In this document: positions 9,313-57,666 of the stretch, one piece after another
Layout of the letters: each line of letters begins with the position of its first letter
Numbering within the stretch: position 1 is the first letter of the stretch
Source: a bacterium
Lineage (GTDB): Bacteria; Patescibacteriota; Minisyncoccia; Phycocordibacterales; UBA2100
DNA: 64,000 nucleotides
Assembly: GCA_038128225.1 (NCBI GenBank)
Contig: JAYPJF010000001.1
Location: 168,092 to 232,091 of the forward strand
Direction of reading: 5' to 3'
Made by a program: the position numbers and the translations under genes
Notes under the pieces: model-generated
The model's input: the letters and a program-made list of their open reading frames with translations, nothing else
Database searches by the model: none
Told to the model about the DNA's origin: nothing

Positions 9313-9383
9313 TGCGGGATGCGGGAATCGAACCCGCGACCTCAGTTTGGAAAACTGATATTTTACCATTAAACTAATCCCGC
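9313..9383 (-). tRNA. tRNA-Gly (anticodon TCC)
   Basis: Reverse complement reads GCGGGATTAGTTTAATGGTAAAATATCAGTTTTCCAAACTGAGGTCGCGGGTTCGATTCCCGCATCCCGCA. It folds as a cloverleaf with anticodon loop TTTCCAA and no encoded CCA. Confidence 0.75.
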
Positions 9384-14688: not shown

Positions 14689-14759
14689 TCGGGGCGCCGG
14701 GAATTGAACCCGGTCTACATGCTCCCAAAGCACGCGTACTACCGGTATACTACGCCCCG
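14689..14759 (-). tRNA. tRNA-Pro (anticodon TGG)
   Basis: Reverse complement reads CGGGGCGTAGTATACCGGTAGTACGCGTGCTTTGGGAGCATGTAGACCGGGTTCAATTCCCGGCGCCCCGA, with anticodon loop TTTGGGA. Confidence 0.75.
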
Positions 14760-16578: not shown

Positions 16579-16649
16579 GCGGGTATAGTTTAGTGGTAGA
16601 ACGTCAGATTGCCATTCTGAGGACGGGAGTTCGATTCTCCCTACCCGCA
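16579..16649 (+). tRNA. tRNA-Gly (anticodon GCC)
   Basis: Sequence reads GCGGGTATAGTTTAGTGGTAGAACGTCAGATTGCCATTCTGAGGACGGGAGTTCGATTCTCCCTACCCGCA. Confidence 0.8.
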
Positions 16650-16659
16650 CTCTTTTTTG

Positions 16660-16731
16660 TGCTCCCGCCAGGATTCGAACCCGGAATAACGGTTCCGAAG
16701 ACCGTTGTGATATCCATTTCACCACGGGAGC
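16660..16731 (-). tRNA. tRNA-Arg (anticodon TCG)
   Basis: Reverse complement reads GCTCCCGTGGTGAAATGGATATCACAACGGTCTTCGGAACCGTTATTCCGGGTTCGAATCCTGGCGGGAGCA. Confidence 0.75.
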
Positions 16732-19912: not shown

Positions 19913-20893
19913 TCAGCTTCGCTTTCTTCCATGGAACTTTTTATGTACTTCTTTAAGGTGTTTGTCGGTTACGTGCGTATAAATCTGTGTTGTATTAATG
20001 CTTGCATGCCCCAAAAGAGCCTGAACACTACGAATATCTGCTCCATTCTGCAGCAGATCGGTAGCAAATGAATGCCTTACAATGTGCGGGGTCACTTTTT
20101 TAGTGATACCAGCCTTAATAGCGTTGCGTTTCACCATGCGCTCAATCGAGCGAACAGTGAGGCGGCTCGCTTTGCCGCGTGCACCCTTGCCATAGTGTAC
20201 AAAAAGCGCCCCGTCGAGATCTTTGCGCGCATCGAGATACATTTTTATAGCCTTCTTAGCCTCGGGTGAAAAAAATACCACGCGCACCTTCTCGCCTTTG
20301 CCGCGGACAGAAAGCTCATCCCGACTTAAATCAACGTCTCGATCAAGTGAGGCAAGTTCTGAGACACGTAGCCCTGTTGAAAAGAGTGTCTCAAGAATCG
20401 CTCGGTCACGCAATCCTTGGAGGCTTTGGAGGTCAGGGGCAGCAAGCAACCTGCCTAATTCTGCCTCAGAAATAAGATCAATCTCACGATCGGGTAATTT
20501 TGCGAGCTCAATTGTTTCCGGCTCAAGTGTTTTGACCCGACATTTACGCAAATACTTCAAAAACGCCCGGAGCGCGATGAGGTAGTAATTCTGAGTTCGC
20601 CTCTTCATTGATCCGCTCACTCCCTCCTGTCGATTGAGCCAGAGCCTGAATTCACGCACAGCGGTCTGTGTTATGTCTTCAGGCTTTTTTGCCTTAGTTT
20701 GAGAGAAAAAACGGGTGAGATACCGATCGTAGTTTTCGACCGTTTTCACCGAACGCCCGCGCTCGATCTCTACATACTCAAGAAATTGCGCCTTGTATTC
20801 TTGGAGATCTGTCGCCACAGGATTATTGTACCTGAGACAACCGGTCAAAGAAGGGCTTGCAATAAGCGAAAGTGCGTGGTACTCTCTCTCCAT
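19913..20893 (-). CDS. xerC: Tyrosine site-specific recombinase XerC/XerD. An alternative GTG start at 20818 is possible.
   Basis: C-terminal catalytic motifs HSFATDLLQNGADIRSVQALLGHASINTTQIYTHV. The ATG at 20893 overlaps the rpsO start codon. Confidence 0.8.
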   Translation of the reverse strand: MEREYHALSLIASPSLTGCLRYNNPVATDLQEYKAQFLEYVEIERGRSVKTVENYDRYLTRFFSQTKAKKPEDITQTAVREFRLWLNRQEGVSGSMKRRTQNYYLIALRAFLKYLRKCRVKTLEPETIELAKLPDREIDLISEAELGRLLAAPDLQSLQGLRDRAILETLFSTGLRVSELASLDRDVDLSRDELSVRGKGEKVRVVFFSPEAKKAIKMYLDARKDLDGALFVHYGKGARGKASRLTVRSIERMVKRNAIKAGITKKVTPHIVRHSFATDLLQNGADIRSVQALLGHASINTTQIYTHVTDKHLKEVHKKFHGRKRS

Positions 20894-21158
20894 GTTGACG
20901 AAACAAAAGAAAGCAAATGAGATCAAAAAAGCACGTCGCCACGACACCGACACCGGTTCTCCGGAGGTGCAGGTTGCGGTTTTGACTCGTCGAATCGATG
21001 AACTTTCTGAGCACTTGCGAAAAAATGACAAAGATAAACATTCGCGCCGCGGCTTGCTCGGACTTGTTGCAGACCGTCGTCGACACCTCAAGTATCTTGA
21101 GAAACACAACAAACGCTCGTACAATGCGCTTGTAAAGAAGCTTGGTCTGAAGAGATAG
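20892..21158 (+). CDS. rpsO: 30S ribosomal protein S15
   Basis: Translation reads MLTKQKKANEIKKARRHDTDTGSPEVQVAVLTRRIDELSEHL. Confidence 0.9.
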   Translation: MLTKQKKANEIKKARRHDTDTGSPEVQVAVLTRRIDELSEHLRKNDKDKHSRRGLLGLVADRRRHLKYLEKHNKRSYNALVKKLGLKR

Positions 21159-46826: not shown

Positions 46827-47270
46827 CTATTCAGGCTTGTACCTGATAACAAGACGTCGGTTTTTGCCTTCTCCTTGCGACTCAGTGCTTACATTGGGCT
46901 CCTCCGCTAGGGTCGCATGCACAATCATTCGCTCATATGCCGACAAATCACTCATTTCAACATCATATTGGAAAGACCGGGCTCTGCCTGCCATCATTTT
47001 AGCTTTTTGTTGTAACTCTTGAATGCTTTTGGTGCGATAATTATCGACGTCAATCACAAAATGCGTGTCCTCGATACCGCGTTGTTCAGCTATTTTCTTG
47101 GCCACATATTCAAGCGATCGGAGTGTTTCACCTCGTACACCGATGAGTGTTTTTGGTTCGGTTGTTTTGACAGTAAAGATGCGCTGCCCAGCAACAGTCC
47201 CTTCCTCGATTCCGCTATACGGCAGGCCAATATGCTCGAGTAGCTCTGTGACTATCGTTGGTATCTGCAT
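46827..47270 (-). CDS. jag: Jag/KhpB (KH plus R3H) RNA-binding protein
   Basis: KH motif LIGVRGETLRSLEY and an R3H-like C-terminus, located in the yidC-jag pair. Confidence 0.75.
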   Translation of the reverse strand: MQIPTIVTELLEHIGLPYSGIEEGTVAGQRIFTVKTTEPKTLIGVRGETLRSLEYVAKKIAEQRGIEDTHFVIDVDNYRTKSIQELQQKAKMMAGRARSFQYDVEMSDLSAYERMIVHATLAEEPNVSTESQGEGKNRRLVIRYKPE

Positions 47271-47272
47271 AG

Positions 47273-48007
47273 TTATACCGTATCTTTACCATGTTTTTCT
47301 TTCCTTACCAAGAGTTCCTGCCCTATGGTAAATGTATTGCTTACAACCCAGTACAATGCAACAGCGGCAGAAATTGTGTATGCAAATACCCCAACAAGAA
47401 CTGGGAGTACGTACTTTACCTGCACGTGCATACTCCGCATCAAATCGTCCTTAAATGTTGGTGTTCCTTGGGGAGGCTCTGGTTTTTGAACTGACAATAA
47501 CGCGTGTAGAAATTGTGTCACGCCAGCAAGTACCGCAAGCGCCACGCTGCGATCGCCCATATTAATGCCAAAGATGAAATGCATATCAACTGATTCCGGT
47601 GGAGGAACAAAAGAGTATAAAAGTGTCGTATCGATAGTCGGAAGTCCTCCTTTATAAAAAACCCAATACAAGCCTAAGATGACAGGGATCTGAATAAACA
47701 GCGTGGCAATACTTGCAAATGGATGAATATTGTACTCTCGGTACAATGCGAGAGTTTTTTCCAAATACATTTTTTGATCGTCTTTGTATTGTTTCTTTAT
47801 TTCTTCGAGTTTTGGAGCAGCAACGCGCATGGCACGTTGCGTATGAATGGCTTTTCGCGCTAAAGGGAAAAGAATAATCTTAACCGCCACCGTGAGCGCA
47901 ATGATTGCAAGCGCGACATTACTTATCGAAGGAAGTACCGAGAGGAGAAATACGAGACTGTTGTACAGTGGATCGTACACTACAAGGTGAAAGAATGAAC
48001 TGAGCAT
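47273..48007 (-). CDS. yidC: Membrane protein insertase YidC (short form)
   Basis: Multi-TM protein with the conserved GLYWV block, located next to rnpA. Confidence 0.8.
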   Translation of the reverse strand: MLSSFFHLVVYDPLYNSLVFLLSVLPSISNVALAIIALTVAVKIILFPLARKAIHTQRAMRVAAPKLEEIKKQYKDDQKMYLEKTLALYREYNIHPFASIATLFIQIPVILGLYWVFYKGGLPTIDTTLLYSFVPPPESVDMHFIFGINMGDRSVALAVLAGVTQFLHALLSVQKPEPPQGTPTFKDDLMRSMHVQVKYVLPVLVGVFAYTISAAVALYWVVSNTFTIGQELLVRKEKHGKDTV

Positions 48008-48028
48008 AACCCGACCATTATCGAATAC

Positions 48029-48277
48029 CTACCTCTTACGAGCAAGCACCCCTCGTAATGTTTCGATAATGACTGAAAATGGCGCCACAGCAACTTCTCC
48101 TGTAGGCATGATGGTTTTATCATGTATTGAAACCCCTTCTTTTTTAAGAAGCACACACACTGCTCTGGTACGCCTTTTTATCTTGTTGCGAAGAACCGCT
48201 TTATCTGCGGTCTTTTTTGACACCACAATACGCACACCGGCACCGTTGTTTGCTTTTATAAGAAATAAAGGGGTCAT
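48029..48277 (-). CDS. rnpA: Ribonuclease P protein component
   Basis: NKIKRRTRAV motif, positioned between rpmH and yidC. Confidence 0.65.
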   Translation of the reverse strand: MTPLFLIKANNGAGVRIVVSKKTADKAVLRNKIKRRTRAVCVLLKKEGVSIHDKTIMPTGEVAVAPFSVIIETLRGVLARKR

Positions 48278-48406
48278 CTAGATCCCGAGTCGGGTACGCC
48301 CCTTTCGCCGTCGTGAGGCGAGCACACTCCCACCAGCACGTTTCCGCGCGATAAAACCATGGGTTCGCGCACGCTTTCTCTTCTTTGGTTGATATGTTCT
48401 TCGCAT
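48278..48406 (-). CDS. rpmH: 50S ribosomal protein L34
   Basis: Reverse-strand translation reads [42 protein letters not shown]. At 42 aa it is below the track cutoff. Confidence 0.85.
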
Positions 48407-48541
48407 ACCCGCATGGTACTTTTTTTATTACATTCGGCAAGCTTTTTGTGTTGTGCACAGGTTATGCACATACTGCAACACAGAAAGGTCTTTTGTGTGC
48501 TATCTGGGACTCGAGACGCCCATGTATAATGCCGTGTACGT
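48407..48541. other. rpmH-dnaA intergenic region carrying DnaA-box-like motifs (TTATGCACA at 48462..48470). It is part of the candidate oriC.
   Basis: The box matches the TTATnCACA consensus. Confidence 0.35.
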
Positions 48542-49888
48542 ATGTTGAGTGATCGTGAGTTATGGCAAAACGCACTCGTCCAAATCGAGCTTGGGACCTC
48601 TGAGGCAAGTTTTCGGACGTGGTTTAAAGGCACTGATATTGTTAAAAGAGAAAACGGGGAAGTGCAGATCGCCGTTCCAAGTAAAATTGTAAAAGAATGG
48701 TTGCGTGAAAAACATAATAAACTAATCCTCAAAACCCTTCGCGACCTCGACCCGTCGGTTCGCTCAATTGAGTATGTGGTCCATAAAGTAACCAAGCCAC
48801 AACCAAAAGAGTCGCCACATCAATACCAAGCAAACGAAACACTCGAGATTTCTGATCTTTATATCGACAAACGTGATAATTTAAACCCCCGATATACATT
48901 TGAGACTTTTATTGTTGGTAACTTTAACCAACTCGCGCACGCTGCGGCACAAGCGGTCATTCAGCGGCCCGGACTAACATATAACCCATTATTTATCTAT
49001 GGGCACACGGGGCATGGAAAAACACACCTCATCCAAGCAATTGGTAACTATTTCAAAAAAAAGCACCAAAATAAAAAGGTTTTCTATGTGACCTCAGAGC
49101 GTTTTGCGATCGACTATATCAATGCTGTTCGCGTCGGGCGCGCTAATTCGTTTAAAGACCATTACCGACAATACGATGTCCTTATTATGGATGACGTCCA
49201 GTTCATTGCGAACACTGAAAAAACACAAGAAGAACTTTTCCATCTTTTTAACGCGCTCCACGACAATAACAAACAAATTGTTTTTTCTTCTGATAAACAC
49301 CCTAGTCAATTACCTAATTTTGAAGACCGTTTGAAAGGTCGTTTTAGTGCAGGAATGATTGCTGAAATACCTCCACCGGATCTCGAATCACGAATCTCGA
49401 TTATCAAAGCGAAAGGGGATCATTATCATTTTCCTTTTTCTGATGAAAATGCGAAATATATAGCGGGGAACGTCACAGGAAATATTCGAGAACTCGAGGG
49501 AGTGGTAAATATGCTTATTTGCAAAACCCAAGTGAAGGGATCGGTGCTTACCGAACAAGAAATAGCTTTAGTTATCAAACAAACAACAAAGCCGTCTCGT
49601 GGTGTCTCTATTACTGATGTAGTAAAGAAGACTGCGCAATTTTATAATATTGAAGAGAAAAGTATCTACGAAAAAACAAGAAAAAAAGAGGTTGTGCGCC
49701 CACGTCAAGTAATTATGTTTATCCTTCGAGAAGAGTTTGGTGTTTCATATCCAAGTATCGGTGAAAAACTTGGTGGGCGCGACCACACTACAGTCATTCA
49801 TTCTTGTGAAAAAATAAAAGATGAGATCAAACGAGACCCTGTACTCGCTCAAGAGATTGAGGAAGTTAAATCTCTTATGAGTGTATAA
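48542..49888 (+). CDS. dnaA: Chromosomal replication initiator DnaA
   Basis: Walker A GHTGHGKTHL, an AAA+ core and a C-terminal DNA-binding domain. Confidence 0.9.
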   Translation: MLSDRELWQNALVQIELGTSEASFRTWFKGTDIVKRENGEVQIAVPSKIVKEWLREKHNKLILKTLRDLDPSVRSIEYVVHKVTKPQPKESPHQYQANETLEISDLYIDKRDNLNPRYTFETFIVGNFNQLAHAAAQAVIQRPGLTYNPLFIYGHTGHGKTHLIQAIGNYFKKKHQNKKVFYVTSERFAIDYINAVRVGRANSFKDHYRQYDVLIMDDVQFIANTEKTQEELFHLFNALHDNNKQIVFSSDKHPSQLPNFEDRLKGRFSAGMIAEIPPPDLESRISIIKAKGDHYHFPFSDENAKYIAGNVTGNIRELEGVVNMLICKTQVKGSVLTEQEIALVIKQTTKPSRGVSITDVVKKTAQFYNIEEKSIYEKTRKKEVVRPRQVIMFILREEFGVSYPSIGEKLGGRDHTTVIHSCEKIKDEIKRDPVLAQEIEEVKSLMSV

Positions 49889-50087
49889 CGTGTGGGTATA
49901 TATGGGTACAAAAAAAGAACAGTGTGTGTACAGAACAGAAAACCAAAGCGGTAAAAATCTCTTAATAGAATTACTCGGGTTTTTTGTTGATAAGTTCTGT
50001 GCTTATATTTCCTTATCTCTTAGTGTTTTTTCTACTTATACACATATTCGACTCACTAATAGTAGTAATAGGTATTATTAAAAGAAT
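49889..50087. other. AT-rich dnaA-dnaN spacer, a candidate DNA-unwinding element or oriC, with a DnaA-box-like TGTTGATAA at 49985..49993
   Basis: About 70% AT and sits at the canonical origin position between dnaA and dnaN. Confidence 0.4.
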
Positions 50088-51182
50088 ATGAAGTACACCT
50101 GTGAAAAGAAAGATTTATTGCATGCTGTTGAAATCGCAGAGCGTATTGTAGGTAAAAAGGAAAACCTTCCCGTTCTTTCGTGTGTTCTTTTTGATGTGCA
50201 AGAAAAAATCACCTGTACTGCAACCAATCTTGAATCTGCGGTTTGTATATCTATCCCAGGTGCTATACAAAAAAAAGGGAAGGTAGCAGTTCCTGCGACG
50301 CTTCTTATTGGGTTATTAAGAAATTCCCGCGGAGAAAAAGTAACCATTTCAGTTGAGGATGTTTTTACACTCGAATCAGTAGGGTCTGTTGATAAGATTA
50401 AAATAGTTCCTCATGACGAGTTCCCAACAATACCGTTCATGAATAAAAACGAGCAGAGTTATATCCTCCCTATACGTACATTTTCAAACGGTGTCACAGC
50501 GGTTTTATACGCAGCATCAACATCATTAATACGTCCAGAGTTTGCGAGTGTGTATATAACACAACAAAATACATCAATGGTTTTTGCTGCGACTGACTCT
50601 TTTCGACTTGCTGAAAAAAAGATTCAAAGCAAGGAAACAGAAAACATCTTTGATGTCCTTTTACCAACAAAGAACGCGCAAGAGCTTATTTCTGTATTTA
50701 GTGGTGAGGAAGGGGATGCGGTCTGTGTTCTTACGGAATCTCAAATACAAGTAACTGTAGATGGTCTTGTGTATGTTTCTAGGGTTATTGATGGAACATT
50801 TCCTGAATATACCGCCGTGATTCCTAAGAATTTCTCTACAGAAATGACAGTACTTAAAAGTGATTTTGAAAGCGTACTTCGAAAAGGTAGGTTGTTTTCA
50901 AAAACAAACCAATATATAAGTTTCCATATATATCCGCAAAAGAAAATATGCACTATCACCACTCGAAATACCGATATTGGAGAAATGACTGAAACTCTTA
51001 CTGCTGCGCTCTCAGGTGATGAACTTGATATTAACTTTAATATTCAATATCTACAGGATTGTTTATCAACCATACACTCCGATAGTGTTGTGTTGCGTTT
51101 CGCCGGCGCAGGAAAACCTCTTGTAATACAAGGGATTTCTGATCAGACATTTCGGTACTTAGTGATGCCACTTAATAAATAG
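50088..51182 (+). CDS. dnaN: DNA polymerase III beta sliding clamp
   Basis: Three-domain clamp, positioned after dnaA. Confidence 0.9.
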   Translation: MKYTCEKKDLLHAVEIAERIVGKKENLPVLSCVLFDVQEKITCTATNLESAVCISIPGAIQKKGKVAVPATLLIGLLRNSRGEKVTISVEDVFTLESVGSVDKIKIVPHDEFPTIPFMNKNEQSYILPIRTFSNGVTAVLYAASTSLIRPEFASVYITQQNTSMVFAATDSFRLAEKKIQSKETENIFDVLLPTKNAQELISVFSGEEGDAVCVLTESQIQVTVDGLVYVSRVIDGTFPEYTAVIPKNFSTEMTVLKSDFESVLRKGRLFSKTNQYISFHIYPQKKICTITTRNTDIGEMTETLTAALSGDELDINFNIQYLQDCLSTIHSDSVVLRFAGAGKPLVIQGISDQTFRYLVMPLNK

Positions 51183-53573: not shown

Positions 53574-54071
53574 TTATTTTACCAAGTGTTTGGCTGTCGG
53601 CGCTCTCCTGTGTGCAAGATGGGTGATACCAGCGGCAAGCGCATCATACTCGTCGTCCACACGCTTTTCTGGAGGCAACCGAAGAAGGCGCTGGACCATT
53701 GAAGTAACTTGGTTCTTGTCAGCTTTACCCCAGCCGGCAACTGAAGACTTGATTTGAGCGGGTGTGTATTCGTGTACTGTAATACCATGTTCGCGCGCTA
53801 TGTATACTAAGACGCCTCGTACTTCAGAAACATACAGAGCGGTTTTTTGGTTGGTATTGAAATAGACGCGCTCAATAGCGCACTCACTAGGGTTGTGTTT
53901 TTTAATGAGGTCCGCAAAAGCACTGCCCACGGACCATAAACGATCGCTGAACGCACTGTTTCGGTCAGATGTGACACAGGTGGAGTAGACGACATGCTGC
54001 GCGGTTGCGTCTCCGTCAAGAATTGCAATACCGCACCGATCGTACCCTGGGTCAACGGCAATCACGCGCAT
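53574..54071 (-). CDS. ruvC: Holliday junction resolvase RuvC
   Basis: Translation reads MRVIAVDPGYDRCGIAIL. Confidence 0.85.
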   Translation of the reverse strand: MRVIAVDPGYDRCGIAILDGDATAQHVVYSTCVTSDRNSAFSDRLWSVGSAFADLIKKHNPSECAIERVYFNTNQKTALYVSEVRGVLVYIAREHGITVHEYTPAQIKSSVAGWGKADKNQVTSMVQRLLRLPPEKRVDDEYDALAAGITHLAHRRAPTAKHLVK

Positions 54072-54079
54072 ATACAATT

Positions 54080-54610
54080 TTACGCAGCGTTTGTGTACAC
54101 TGCTTGTACATCGTCATGATCCTCCAATGCTTCAATAAGTTCCGCAAGCTGTGTTCCGGTTTCATCTGAAATATCGACCGCAGTGTTTGGGGAGTACCCG
54201 TCTTCGGTCTTAGAGAATGCCCACGCCGCTGAACCAGGGTTTGCGAGCGCGACACCGCGCTCGCTTAACAAGTGTCTAATTTCTTGGCTCGTGCGGTTAT
54301 TGTTGTCAGTGAGTGCAGAAATCAAAAGTGCCGCACCGCCTGGACCATACGCTTCAAACAACACTGATTCAAGCGCTGCTGCATCCGCACTCGTCCCTTT
54401 TTGTACAGCGCGCTCGATATTTTCTTTCGGCATATTAATCGATTTTGCGCGCTCGATCACCATTCGCAATGAAGGTGACGACAGGTTTCCACCAGTTTTT
54501 TTGGACTCAACAGTGATGAGGCGAGCAAACTTGCCGAACTCCTTACTTCTAGCGGCATCAGTAACCGCCTTCTTTCTTTTTATTTGTGCCCACTTACTAT
54601 GGCCAGCCAT
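54080..54610 (-). CDS. YebC/PmpR-family protein (short, 176 aa)
   Basis: N-terminal MAGHSKWAQIKRKK hallmark and the DDVQAVYTN C-terminus. Confidence 0.7.
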   Translation of the reverse strand: MAGHSKWAQIKRKKAVTDAARSKEFGKFARLITVESKKTGGNLSSPSLRMVIERAKSINMPKENIERAVQKGTSADAAALESVLFEAYGPGGAALLISALTDNNNRTSQEIRHLLSERGVALANPGSAAWAFSKTEDGYSPNTAVDISDETGTQLAELIEALEDHDDVQAVYTNAA

Positions 54611-54642
54611 AGGCGCAGTCTACAGAACAGTTTTCTCTACGT

Positions 54643-55656
54643 CTACCCGAGCAGCGGCTTTTGTTGCGATGAAGAAAAACCCAGATGTTCGCGCGCCTTA
54701 GCGGTCACCATACGGCCGCGTGGGGTGCGTTCAAGTAACCCTATCTGCATCAAATACGGTTCATGTACTTCCTCGAGAGCGCTTTCTTCTTCCGAAAGTG
54801 CTGCCGCGAGTGTCTTAAGCCCAACAGGGCCTCCTCCGTATTTCTCAATAAGCGTTGTGAGAAGATCGCGGTCATTTTGAGTGAGGCCCAACTCATCAAT
54901 TTCGAGAAGTGCGAGTGACTTACGCACCACGTCGAGAGTGAGCGCTGTGTTAGAAACTTGTGCAAAATCGCGCGCTCGTTTTAAAAGATAGTTTGCAGTG
55001 CGAGGTGTCGAGCGGCTGCGGCGCGCGATTTCTTGCTGAGCGTTTTTTGGCACTTCAATGTGAAGTATCGATGATGAACGATCGAGAATACTAACAATCT
55101 CGTTTTCGGTGTAATACGAAAGCCGAAACAGACCTCCTGAAAACCTGCTTCTGAGTGGAGAGGAGAGCATTGCGACGCGAGTGGTCGCTGCGATAAGGGT
55201 AAATGGCGGCAGTTCAAGTTGCACAGTGCGCGCCGCAGGCCCTTTACCGATGACGATATCGAGCACGCCGGATTCCATAGCAGGGTACAGCACTTCCTCA
55301 ATCGCTTTGTTGAGTCGATGGATCTCGTCAATAAACAAAACATCTCCAGGGCTTAGGTTGGTGAGGATTGAAGCCAGATCACCAACACGCTCTATTGCAG
55401 GTCCGGATGTTGCTTTTAACGACGCACCGATTTCTTTCGCGATAAGATGTGCCAGCGTTGTTTTTCCCAGCCCGGGTGGCCCATAGAAAAGTATATGTTC
55501 AGGTTGTTCGCCGCGTGCTTTTGCGGCAGTGAGAAGCACTGACAGGTTTTCTTTTATGCTTTCTTGCCCAATGTACTCGCGCCATGACTGCGGACGTAGA
55601 GATTGATCGAGTGAACGTGTCGAAATGGGTGGCTCGTGCTCTTTTGGTAAGGACAT
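54643..55656 (-). CDS. ruvB: Holliday junction helicase RuvB. The track ORF begins at TTG 55665.
   Basis: Walker A GPPGLGKTTLA and Walker B DEIHRL. Confidence 0.9.
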   Translation of the reverse strand: MSLPKEHEPPISTRSLDQSLRPQSWREYIGQESIKENLSVLLTAAKARGEQPEHILFYGPPGLGKTTLAHLIAKEIGASLKATSGPAIERVGDLASILTNLSPGDVLFIDEIHRLNKAIEEVLYPAMESGVLDIVIGKGPAARTVQLELPPFTLIAATTRVAMLSSPLRSRFSGGLFRLSYYTENEIVSILDRSSSILHIEVPKNAQQEIARRSRSTPRTANYLLKRARDFAQVSNTALTLDVVRKSLALLEIDELGLTQNDRDLLTTLIEKYGGGPVGLKTLAAALSEEESALEEVHEPYLMQIGLLERTPRGRMVTAKAREHLGFSSSQQKPLLG

Positions 55657-55665
55657 AGTAATCAA

Positions 55666-55694
55666 TTGACAATATTCAACTTGTGTGATACTAT
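55666..55694 (+). promoter_or_regulatory. Near-consensus sigma70 promoter TTGACA-17-TACTAT with no protein-coding gene downstream
   Basis: Reads TTGACAatattcaacttgtgtgaTACTAT on the plus strand. Confidence 0.45.
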
Positions 55695-55700
55695 CGCGGC

Positions 55701-55926
55701 CGGTTTAAAACGCACCATCAGACACACAAATCTCTCAGCGATGAAGAGTTTTTCCAAGGACGGCGATGGTTTTCATCACTTGTGATTGAAATGCTGCCCC
55801 TATCCTTAGGATTGACTCGTCTTTCGATGCTACATTCGGAGCATCGCTGAGAGGTTTGTGGTTCGGATGTCCCCTCGCTTGGATGAGAATACCATCCGCG
55901 GTGGTATTGAACAGTAGTCACACACA
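55701..55926 (+). ncRNA. Candidate structured non-coding RNA of about 225 nt between ruvB and pilB. Its class is unknown.
   Basis: Long-range inverted repeat (tctctcagcgatg at about 55733 paired with catcgctgagagg at about 55850) plus internal hairpins (gatgct-acattcgg-agcatc and aatacca-tccgcgg-tggtatt). Neither strand carries a convincing ORF. Confidence 0.25.
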
Positions 55927-57666
55927 TCACTGCGTGTTCTGTTCCGCGGTTTGTGTTTCCAAAACAAACGCGCGCACATCAACAGTGCGTTCGAGCTCTT
56001 CAAATGTTGTTACGCCACGTAAGATTTTTACCGCGCCGTCTTGTGCCATACGCCGGATTTGCTGGTGTTTTGCTGCGCGCCAAATTTCTCGCTCGCTCGA
56101 CGTGGTGCGAACAGTTTTCTCGATAGTTTCATCCATAAGGATCGCTTCAACAACCGCGATACGCCCTTTGTACCCAACGCCTCCACATTTTTCACAACCT
56201 TTTGGTGTCCACATCAACTCGTGGTTCTGCGGTATGTCTTCTGGGTGGGGGATGTTTGTAAGAAGAGCGTCCATGACAACCTTTGTGGTACCGTCAATAA
56301 TTTTTGGGGTGCGACAATGCTCGCATAAACGTCGTACAAGACGCTGGGCCATGGCGACATTGACTGCTGAACCAAGAATTTCAGCATCGATACCCATATC
56401 AATAAGGCGGGGGAACGTGCCTGCGGCATTATTGGTATGAAGCGTAGAGAATACCAAATGCCCAGTAAGCGCAGCGTGTACTGCTGTGGAAGCAACCTCG
56501 CCATCTCGGATTTCGCCGACCATAATGACGTCAGGGTCCTGGCGGAGTGTTGAGCGCAGGCCTTGAGCGAAAGAATACGTTTTGCTTACTTGGGTTTGCA
56601 CCACGCCAGTAAGGTGGTACTCAACCGGATCTTCGATAGTGACGACTTTTATATCAGGCGACTTAACTGCGGATAGAAACGCGTACAGTGTCGTGGTTTT
56701 TCCGGAACCCGTAGGACCGGTGTTCAAAATCATCCCATTCGGTTTTCGAATTTCGTTGTCGAAAATCGCACGCAAATACGTGTCGAACCCAAGCGCGTCC
56801 ATTGGGAGCGCGATAGTGCTCGGATCAAGAACACGCATAACAACAGTCTCGGCATAGTTTCCGGGAAGTACGGAAGTACGAATCTCGATTTCTTTCTGGT
56901 TTACCACGATTGAGAAACGTCCGTCCTGTGCCATGTTTTTAATATTAAGCTTGAGGCCAGAGAGAAGTTTAATGCGCGAAGAGACGAGCGCGTATGTCGG
57001 GTGGTCAAACGTAAGAATTTCCGTGAGCACACCGTCGAGGCGGTAGCGCATGCGCACCAAGGAGTCTTCAGGTTCAAGATGGATGTCCGAGGCTCCAAGC
57101 GAAAGCGCTCCAGCCATGACAATTTCAAGTACGCGAGAAATTCGATGAGTGTCTTTATTGAGTAAGTTTCCTTGCACGTGGTTGCGCACATCAGCAACTG
57201 TCTGTAGTTCCGAGAGCATCTTTTGAATTGCCTCATTTGAGATTGTGAGAATGCCCGCTTCAGTTTCGGTGGCGAAAGAGAGGTCGTGGTAGCGGTCCCA
57301 CGCGCGCTCAAGCGACGCGCGCGACACCATAAAGCGGCGCACCTGATATCCTAAACGTTCCAAAACCTGTATTGCTTGAAGCGAATCCGGCCGCTCTGGT
57401 GCTCTCATTGCAACATACAGGCGTTTGCCAATTTTTCTGAAAGCAGCAACTTCTGTTGCGCGCGCATCTTTTTCAGTAACTAGGCGTAACGCATCTGTAT
57501 CAATCGATTTGTTAGTCAGATCGGTGTACTCGACGCCATATTTTACCGAAAGCACCCGAGCAAGCTCTTCTTCTTCAATTTTCCTTAGACGCTCTAGGCG
57601 TTCATCGCTTTTTTGGTCATGAAACTGCGCTGCCATACTGCGCATTGTACCATCGGAGCCATTCAT
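55927..57666 (-). CDS. pilB: Type II secretion / type IV pilus assembly ATPase (GspE/PilB family)
   Basis: N-terminal GSPII_E_N-like region, Walker A GPTGSGKTTTL and a tetracysteine motif CEHC...CEKCGG. The track ORF begins at 57756. Confidence 0.85.
   Translation of the reverse strand: MNGSDGTMRSMAAQFHDQKSDERLERLRKIEEEELARVLSVKYGVEYTDLTNKSIDTDALRLVTEKDARATEVAAFRKIGKRLYVAMRAPERPDSLQAIQVLERLGYQVRRFMVSRASLERAWDRYHDLSFATETEAGILTISNEAIQKMLSELQTVADVRNHVQGNLLNKDTHRISRVLEIVMAGALSLGASDIHLEPEDSLVRMRYRLDGVLTEILTFDHPTYALVSSRIKLLSGLKLNIKNMAQDGRFSIVVNQKEIEIRTSVLPGNYAETVVMRVLDPSTIALPMDALGFDTYLRAIFDNEIRKPNGMILNTGPTGSGKTTTLYAFLSAVKSPDIKVVTIEDPVEYHLTGVVQTQVSKTYSFAQGLRSTLRQDPDVIMVGEIRDGEVASTAVHAALTGHLVFSTLHTNNAAGTFPRLIDMGIDAEILGSAVNVAMAQRLVRRLCEHCRTPKIIDGTTKVVMDALLTNIPHPEDIPQNHELMWTPKGCEKCGGVGYKGRIAVVEAILMDETIEKTVRTTSSEREIWRAAKHQQIRRMAQDGAVKILRGVTTFEELERTVDVRAFVLETQTAEQNTQ

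Follow-up and report, generated by a model that had tools for sequence, protein, structure and literature searches.

The region between ruvB and a pilB-type gene in a 64,000-nt stretch of contig JAYPJF010000001.1 from a bacterium of the Patescibacteriota (this whole stretch is the window, and positions refer to it unless another locus is named) very probably contains an independently transcribed gene for a structured noncoding RNA of a new family, extending from 55666 to ~55950 on the + strand. An initial interpretation made from the letters of the DNA alone (the sequence-only reading) had proposed an independently transcribed small RNA at this place, and the comparative evidence points the same way: a conserved promoter, a downstream hairpin and U-tract, covariation, an excess of G-U pairs, and no conserved open reading frame (ORF). 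Bacteria of the candidate phyla radiation (CPR/Patescibacteria) account for a large share of bacterial diversity and have stripped-down genomes, and to our knowledge almost nothing is known about their noncoding RNAs. What is new is the RNA family, which has no match among 4227 Rfam families; we claim no new biochemical mechanism. The predicted parts of the gene in the window, all on the + strand, are as follows.

55666-55671, +: -35 hexamer TTGACA; TTGAC[AT] is kept in 56 of 57 homologs
55686-55694, +: extended -10 element TGa-TACTAT after a 17-nt spacer (TG at 55686-55687, hexamer TACTAT at 55689-55694); TGn-TAnnnT is kept in 56 of 57 homologs
55701-55715, +: predicted 5′ leader; the start, ~55701 ± 2, is placed from the -10 position
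55716-55743, +: 5′ arm of P1, the long closing helix; in the family, both partners have changed in 23 of the 25 P1 pairs
55746-55818, +: P2 arm, from the fold of the window, covariation of P2a and P2c, and invariance of AGGA/UCCU
55746-55750 with 55814-55818, +: P2a, 5 bp; the internal loop that follows has UUU on its 5′ side
55753-55760 (UCCAAGGA) with 55803-55811 (UCCUUAGGA), +: P2b, the invariant helix, with a bulged A at 55808
55762-55765 with 55795-55798, +: P2c
55769-55792, +: variable tip hairpin of P2
55821-55841, +: P3, a short hairpin abutting the 3′ arm of P1; three of five pairs change on both sides and 96% of alignment cells are paired
55842-55869, +: 3′ arm of P1, from the inverted repeat, the predicted fold, and covariation
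55870-55908, +: 3′ linker, variable in sequence and length among relatives, with a local hairpin GAAUACCA...UGGUAUU (55887-55908)
55909-55960, +: putative 3′ end, comprising a hairpin at 55909-55939 (GAACAGUAGU...ACUGCGUGUUC) and then a U-rich stretch

A Conserved Fold Supported by Covariation

The sequence-only reading had noted a long-range inverted repeat closing a domain with at least two internal hairpins. The 13-mers it recognized form the core of longer, 28-nt arms (55716-55743 and 55842-55869) that are 86% complementary and have 98 nt between them, and the inner hairpins were found as P2 and P3. A 12-mer of the repeat has only two mismatch-free sites in the window. The minimum free energy (MFE) of the + strand between 55700 and 55940 is -86.5 kcal/mol (z = -5.0), with none of 200 shuffled sequences as stable; the fold of the - strand has z = -3.5. 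An additional pairing, of CGAUGCU (55826-55832) with AGCAUCG (55840-55846), would rival the top of P1 in the window and in one relative (L084), and it is absent from the rest of the family.

Homologous loci numbered 57. Thirteen were reached through relatives of RuvB: the six closest species representatives (L004-L009), which have the same arrangement upstream of ruvB on the opposite strand and share TTGACA, the extended -10, the long inverted repeat, and the motifs AAGGACG and UAUCCU, and seven further loci obtained from RuvB homologs. The other 44 came from scanning metagenomes with a DNA pattern describing the RNA only, chosen to avoid circularity with ruvB. This pattern gave 61 matches, of which 44 score 83-116 bits with R1, a covariance model derived from the 14 sequences first collected; the remaining 17 are the chance matches expected for such a pattern. 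The window itself reaches 132 bits on the + strand vs. 42 bits on the - strand, which favors the + strand, and it has all the features by which we propose to define the family: an extended -10 promoter, a long P1, a three-way junction, and a RAGGA/UCCU helix with a bulged A. The members belong to Paceibacteria/Parcubacteria-type CPR bacteria, the metagenome-assembled genomes (MAGs) of the RuvB relatives being labeled Candidatus Kaiserbacteria, Paceibacterota, Parcubacteria, and Minisyncoccia. No R1 match was found at ~70 non-CPR ruvB loci, and no match to the RNA pattern was found in viral contigs.

When 14 members were folded singly by MFE, each gave an identical P1/P2/P3 architecture. In the family, P1 is 25-28 bp long with one small internal loop, the strands of the three-way junction are only 0-2 nt, and P3 is a 5-7-bp hairpin stacked on P1, whose 3′ strand it abuts, with the consensus CUUUC...GAAAG or CAUUC...GAAUG (CUUUCGA...UCGGAG in the window). 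P2 consists, from its base, of the 5-bp P2a, a pyrimidine-rich loop with UUU opposite CC, an 8-bp AGGA/UCCU helix with the bulged A, a small asymmetric loop, P2c, and the tip. Its basal half is near-invariant (5′ UUUNNC-RAGGA-C-G and 3′ C-UA-UCCU-Y-A-G, in which the A before the final G is bulged), and AGG/CCU and adjoining positions are invariant in 51 distinct sequences; the tip can be as small as a 4-nt loop or as large as a 25-nt hairpin, and the loop of P3 also varies freely. Three members (L006-L008) have an extra hairpin between P1 and P2.

Compensatory changes, which the sequence-only reading had suggested looking for in a comparative alignment, were scored over the full structure in an alignment of all 57 sequences (51 distinct), with slid-partner and shuffle controls. 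Paired cells amounted to 90.0%, vs. 38-43% when partners were slid by one to three columns, and 37 of 48 pairs changed on both sides. Compensatory cells numbered 374, vs. 125 ± 12 in shuffles, and none of 500 shuffles reached any of five measures, a control that overstates significance because all sequences come from one clade; this does not affect the slid-partner comparison or the count of different pair types. RNAalifold found compensatory changes in 28 of 37 pairs, and in 26 of 35 on a larger alignment. The alignment also contains 202 G-U cells vs. 90 A-C cells, the excess lying mostly in P2 and P3, which argues for selection on the RNA of the + strand.

The same data bear on whether the inverted repeat acts only as DNA, for example as a cruciform, a palindrome bound by protein, or what is left of a mobile element. 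A long inverted repeat is indeed present, and similar palindromes (CCCGUUAGAG...CUCUAAYGGG) lie near some members. Yet the sequence of the arms is not fixed but covaries, as it does further in, in P2a, P2c, and P3; at the DNA level the 202 G-U pairs would amount to G-T mismatches; and each locus has a single copy, with a conserved promoter directed into it. We give this explanation a near-negligible probability. An element of the miniature inverted-repeat transposable (MITE) or repetitive extragenic palindromic (REP) type, or another mobile element, was rejected: the sequence is single copy in the 64-kb window and in each of the 57 loci, with none in viral contigs.

The sequence-only reading had seen no credible ORF, and mechanical ORFs of 39 aa (+) and 70 aa (-) do exist in the intergenic region, but none is conserved: no frame is open in most members, and core lengths (130-174 nt) are spread evenly modulo 3. 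A small protein gene was rejected on these grounds. A 7-codon ORF lies inside P2 after AAGGAC (55756-55790; AUG GUU UUC AUC ACU UGU GAU UGA); it is probably fortuitous, as it is absent in relatives when these are inspected by eye.

Promoter and Predicted 3′ End of the RNA Gene

The TTGACA-17-TACTAT promoter reported on the + strand by the sequence-only reading was found at 55666-55694. It agrees with the consensus at 10 of 12 positions and is the sole promoter-like site on the + strand between 55400 and 56200 in a consensus scan, although the match alone is within chance (one site found vs. 0.9 expected in shuffled sequence). Its significance comes from its conservation upstream of the fold: the pattern TTGAC[AT]-N16/17-TGn-TAnnnT stands 19-149 nt upstream of the core in 56 of the 57 members, this -10-to-core distance being the length of the leader, and the one member with no match is cut off by the end of its contig.

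At the other end, most members have a covarying hairpin followed by UUUUGUGG on the same strand, 3-105 nt past P1. In L008, P1 runs straight into a U-run, and strong canonical terminators lie downstream of the RNA in L085 and L089. The 3′ hairpin of the window is a degenerate counterpart of the family 3′ element (UAGCACCC-hairpin-GGGUUUUGUGGUGUAAA) and overlaps the stop codon (55927-55929) and last codons of pilB, which is on the opposite strand. The length of the RNA, ~200-250 nt, is an estimate because its 3′ end is itself predicted.

The 3′ element has features of its own. Located at 55906-55960 in the window and 3-105 nt past the core in the family, it is strongly conserved in L148, L147, L146, L099, L086, and others, and consists of (A/C)GA-UAGCACCC, a covarying hairpin (for example, CCCGAUUGC...GCAAUCGGG or CCGCAUUGC...GCAAUGCGG), and then UUUUGUGGUGUAAA. 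Its U-tract is able to pair with an upstream ACGAUA, perfectly so in L137, L144, and L132, and its loop carries insertions of 45-100 nt in L112, L136, L096, L111, and L114 and in L004, L122, L139, and L128. In L085 and L089 another strong terminator precedes the element, which may therefore be a separate unit. A palindromic hairpin, CCCGUUAGAGG...CUCUAAYGGG, is conserved just upstream of the -35 hexamer, between ruvB and the RNA promoter, in L005, L090, L139, L134, L111, L114, and L112; a similar palindrome, CCCCGUUAGAAAU...AUUUCUAACGGGG, occurs within the 3′ element of other members, and a CUCUAAG...CUUAGAG hairpin is present in L060 (1422-1486). The CUCUAA-type palindrome may be a recurrent palindromic element or an operator.

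A base-pairing regulatory small RNA (sRNA) was another candidate, with the core chiefly as a stabilizing scaffold and a conserved single-stranded segment, such as UUGAAC-N-AUAGCAC before the 3′ hairpin, pairing with mRNAs. The RNA has its own promoter and a terminator-like 3′ hairpin, and the motif UUGAACNAUAGCAC(C) is conserved 5′ of that hairpin (UUGAACAGUAGUCAC at 55906-55920 in the window). However, it is the paired and looped P2 that shows the strongest conservation, rather than a linear seed; the U-tract pairs with part of the motif; and the UAGCAC element lies behind the separate strong terminator in L085 and L089 and so is perhaps outside the RNA. An sRNA of this kind is therefore unlikely in our view.

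Comparison with Known RNA Families

The 4227 families of Rfam 15 were searched at the gathering score and at E ≤ 10. At the gathering score there was no match in the window locus or in ten homologous loci, and at E ≤ 10 nothing relevant was obtained from 401 nt of the window, from the 13 homologous loci (63 kb), or from L087 (281 nt); hits, including those in two look-alike RNAs described below (L012 and L060), were only snoRNA, leader, or terminator noise. The sequence-only reading had seen no signature of signal recognition particle (SRP) RNA, 6S RNA, RNase P RNA, or tmRNA and had proposed a cmscan run against Rfam as a check; that search, silent even at the permissive threshold, agrees with it. 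Covariance models of RNase P RNA, tmRNA, 5S rRNA, and Y RNA gave no match either. A literature search on 6S RNA, noncoding RNA, and structured RNA in CPR, Patescibacteria, or Parcubacteria did not turn up any account of this RNA.

Two further candidates were rejected individually. For box C/D RNA, the best scores were 12-17 bits vs. gathering scores of 40-90, and the GAUGA and CUGA strings lie in paired positions of P1 without being conserved, CUGA being absent from most members. A 5S rRNA-like three-way junction agrees with neither the sizes of the arms nor the conserved loops, and RF00001 gave no hit.

6S RNA (ssrS, RF00013) is the most specific known analog. Under this alternative the RNA would bind the sigma-A holoenzyme as a mimic of an open promoter; P1 and P2 would then correspond to its downstream and upstream duplexes, respectively, and the junction and P3 to the bubble and the hairpin on the 3′ side of it. 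Like 6S, a housekeeping RNA, the ruvB-divergent RNA has a strong sigma-70, housekeeping-type promoter (in its case throughout the members), a long closing helix that joins segments far apart in the sequence, a hairpin located 3′ at the junction, and a size within the 6S range. Moreover, 6S RNAs are poorly conserved in sequence between phyla, and no canonical 6S RNA was detected in the window or the studied loci. In contrast to 6S, RF00013 does not match, even at E ≤ 10 on stretches of 281-401 nt; the would-be bubble is closed into a three-way junction by the covarying 5-bp P2a (GC/GU/AU and AU/GC types), the largest unpaired stretches being 3-5 nt; the apical arm can be very short, P2 falling to ~15 bp in L004 and L090, by inference too short for a -35-like contact; and a 5′ leader and a 3′ tail extend beyond P1. 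On balance a 6S-type function appears improbable.

SRP RNA (4.5S/ffs; RF00169, RF01854) also has a long helix with conserved asymmetric internal loops near the hairpin end, and the 5′ strand of P2, UUUACC-GAGGAC, loosely resembles, by eye, the UUUACCAGGUC stretch of E. coli 4.5S RNA. Neither Rfam model matches, and the 3′ strand of P2, its tip, which is variable in length and has no GNRA-type tetraloop or AGCA motif, and the extra P3 branch are unlike 4.5S RNA. Parcubacteria have been reported to lack both ffh and ffs (PMC4508563). This report, together with the missing conserved tip tetraloop, makes identity with SRP RNA unlikely. A tblastn search of ~1 Mb of collected sequence with E. coli Ffh as the query gave no match, a sample too small to decide.

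Other comparisons were less close. Y RNA/YrlA, a protein-binding scaffold, likewise has a long stem made of the 5′ and 3′ parts and a structured end module, whereas the present RNA has no Y RNA match in Rfam, lacks a tRNA-like module, showing neither T-loop nor D-loop motifs, and is not accompanied by an rsr gene at its locus, and its conserved bulge is in P2, not in the closing stem. The phi29-type pRNA (RF00044), which binds protein, shares the three-way junction, the long closing helix, and two hairpin arms but is phage-encoded; the ruvB-divergent RNA lacks a phage context and conserved loop-loop pairing, and it was matched neither in viral contigs nor by the Rfam model. The nearest parallel in kind is with orphan structured RNAs such as the raiA motif RNA and lineage-specific Rfam motif RNAs, which are defined by covariation, occur in one lineage, and have their own promoter and terminator; the RNA described here differs in having no match to those families, in residing in CPR hosts with highly reduced genomes, and in its unusually fixed position beside ruvB.

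A tight three-way junction with invariant internal-loop nucleotides also occurs in some ribozymes and aptamers, so that a catalytic or ligand-sensing RNA was considered, in the form of a ribozyme or of a trans-acting orphan RNA resembling a riboswitch. No Rfam ribozyme or riboswitch model matches. The 0-2-nt junction strands are too short for a hammerhead or other ribozyme core, and the P3 loop and P2 tip vary too freely for a conserved tertiary contact between loops. The P1 helices of aptamers are far shorter than this one. A riboswitch or cis leader is excluded because it would have no same-strand gene downstream to control, the downstream gene being convergent in the window (pilB) and in most loci, and terminator-type hairpins follow the fold. 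We regard a catalytic or ligand-sensing function as highly improbable.

Linkage to ruvB

The genes flanking the RNA in the window are both on the - strand, in agreement with the sequence-only reading.

54643-55656, -: ruvB, the divergent neighbor; its start codon is 9 nt from the -35 hexamer of the RNA gene
55927-57666, -: pilB-type T2SSE ATPase, the convergent neighbor; PF05157 and PF00437 on the identical contig L002

The intergenic region between them measures 270 nt (55657-55926), correcting an earlier figure of about 225 nt, and identical public contigs have the same gene calls and Pfam domains as the window locus. Compared with MAG proteins, the RuvB of the window is at most 74-79% identical, except for one relative at 91% and an identical sequence, which places the window in a Patescibacteria/CPR bacterium.

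ruvB is divergent from the RNA, at 108-542 nt from the core, in 39 of the 44 loci found with the RNA-only pattern, and four of the other five have too little flanking sequence; it is divergent in all 13 RuvB-anchored loci. Outer neighbors change while the linkage to ruvB holds, and pilB is absent downstream in several loci. The RNA and its promoter are nevertheless kept with ruvB not adjacent in L130 (17-772, - strand), where the divergent neighbor is an unrelated 251-aa protein with no Pfam domain, and probably also in L116 (1-355), a close relative of L130 in one subclade. Adjacency to ruvB is therefore not obligatory.

This distribution could reflect a locus-bound control of ruvB (or pilB) through occlusion or competition where the two promoters lie back to back, or through an RNA antisense to a pilB-ruvB read-through transcript or to a ruvB leader. 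Such control would fit the near-constant divergence from ruvB amid varying outer neighbors, even in loci found by a route that did not use ruvB; the 9-nt distance between the -35 hexamer and the ruvB start codon in the window; and the finding that no consistent sigma-70 promoter-like site is present on the ruvB strand. On the other hand, interference or antisense action needs neither a covarying three-way junction nor invariant internal loops, the G-U excess indicates selection on the + strand RNA itself, the RNA and promoter persist away from ruvB in L130 and probably L116, and several loci have no pilB downstream. We assign the locus-bound explanation only a small chance. Pairing of AAGGAC with the start region of ruvB was seen by eye in the window; as it was not seen in L084, this candidate was dropped.

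Another RNA divergent from ruvB was observed in two more distant Paceibacteria-type genomes, in which RuvB is 56-60% identical (L012, 2313-2522, - strand; L060, 2543-2738, - strand). It has a TTGACA-17-TGnTAnTAT promoter, a closing helix of ~25 bp (UGUAGACA...UGUCUACA), and three inner hairpins. Neither RNA matched Rfam, and R1 gave no match for L012 and 23.5 bits for L060, the long stem contributing most of that score. The RNA of these genomes could be a distant homolog or a replacement.

Candidate Function

Among the functions considered, we tentatively favor a stable, abundant, trans-acting RNA that binds protein, although we put this candidate at somewhat below an even chance. Conservation sits in the basal part of P2 and at the junction, while distal P2 and the P3 loop are free to vary, which is the reason for suspecting a protein site; a pattern of this sort typically points to a local protein-recognition site on a rigid helix, more so than to a compact tertiary fold or a linear seed. 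In the proposed mechanism, the RNA would be made constitutively and abundantly and would act in trans as the RNA of a stable ribonucleoprotein (RNP). The invariant asymmetric loops and bulged A of P2, beside the junction, would form the recognition platform, and P1 might provide rigidity and nuclease resistance or a duplex-mimicking surface. It is possible, and we hold this no more firmly than a working proposal, that the family represents a new class of housekeeping RNP RNA of Paceibacteria-type CPR bacteria, rather than a divergent 6S, SRP, or Y RNA, with a function perhaps tied to the RuvB branch-migration machinery or its expression, as the near-constant head-to-head position relative to ruvB would suggest. 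The genomes retaining the RNA have shed many other things, SRP reportedly among them.

Several observations weigh against a trans-acting RNP RNA or against the strength of the case for a separate RNA gene. The near-universal linkage to ruvB and the lack of a ruvB-strand promoter could mean a cis-acting or locus-specific role. The consensus scan called no canonical terminator at the 3′ end of the window RNA, which runs into pilB, and no known protein-binding RNA motif was recognized in P2. Finally, all members come from one clade, with RuvB 65-91% identical to that of the window, so part of the conservation reflects relatedness.

A single-copy RNA that has one of the best promoters of its locus and whose fold has been kept by dozens of compensatory changes likely serves a basic role. 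If it proved to be a stand-in for 6S RNA or the RNA of a new RNP, it would bear on transcription regulation or DNA repair in CPR bacteria, and the family is a clean marker for annotating CPR genomes. Lineage-specific orphan RNAs are found fairly often, which tempers the interest of any one of them.

Other Features of the Window

The operon order at 53574-55656 is ruvB-yebC-ruvC, with no ruvA upstream of ruvB; a tblastn search of the 64 kb with an E. coli RuvA query showed no convincing RuvA-like ORF, giving matches only at E > 0.4, the best ORF having no Pfam domain, and is uninformative. At 46827-51182 lie jag/KhpB (R3H) and yidC, followed by dnaA and dnaN on the opposite strand. This jag/yidC/dnaA/dnaN order suggests that the replication origin is ~6-7 kb from the RNA gene. 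The sole Rfam matches in the window to reach threshold are four tRNA genes (9313-9383, 14689-14759, 16579-16649, and 16660-16731), and a tyrosine recombinase/integrase gene (PF00589) is located at 19913-21124, ~3 kb from the tRNA pair.

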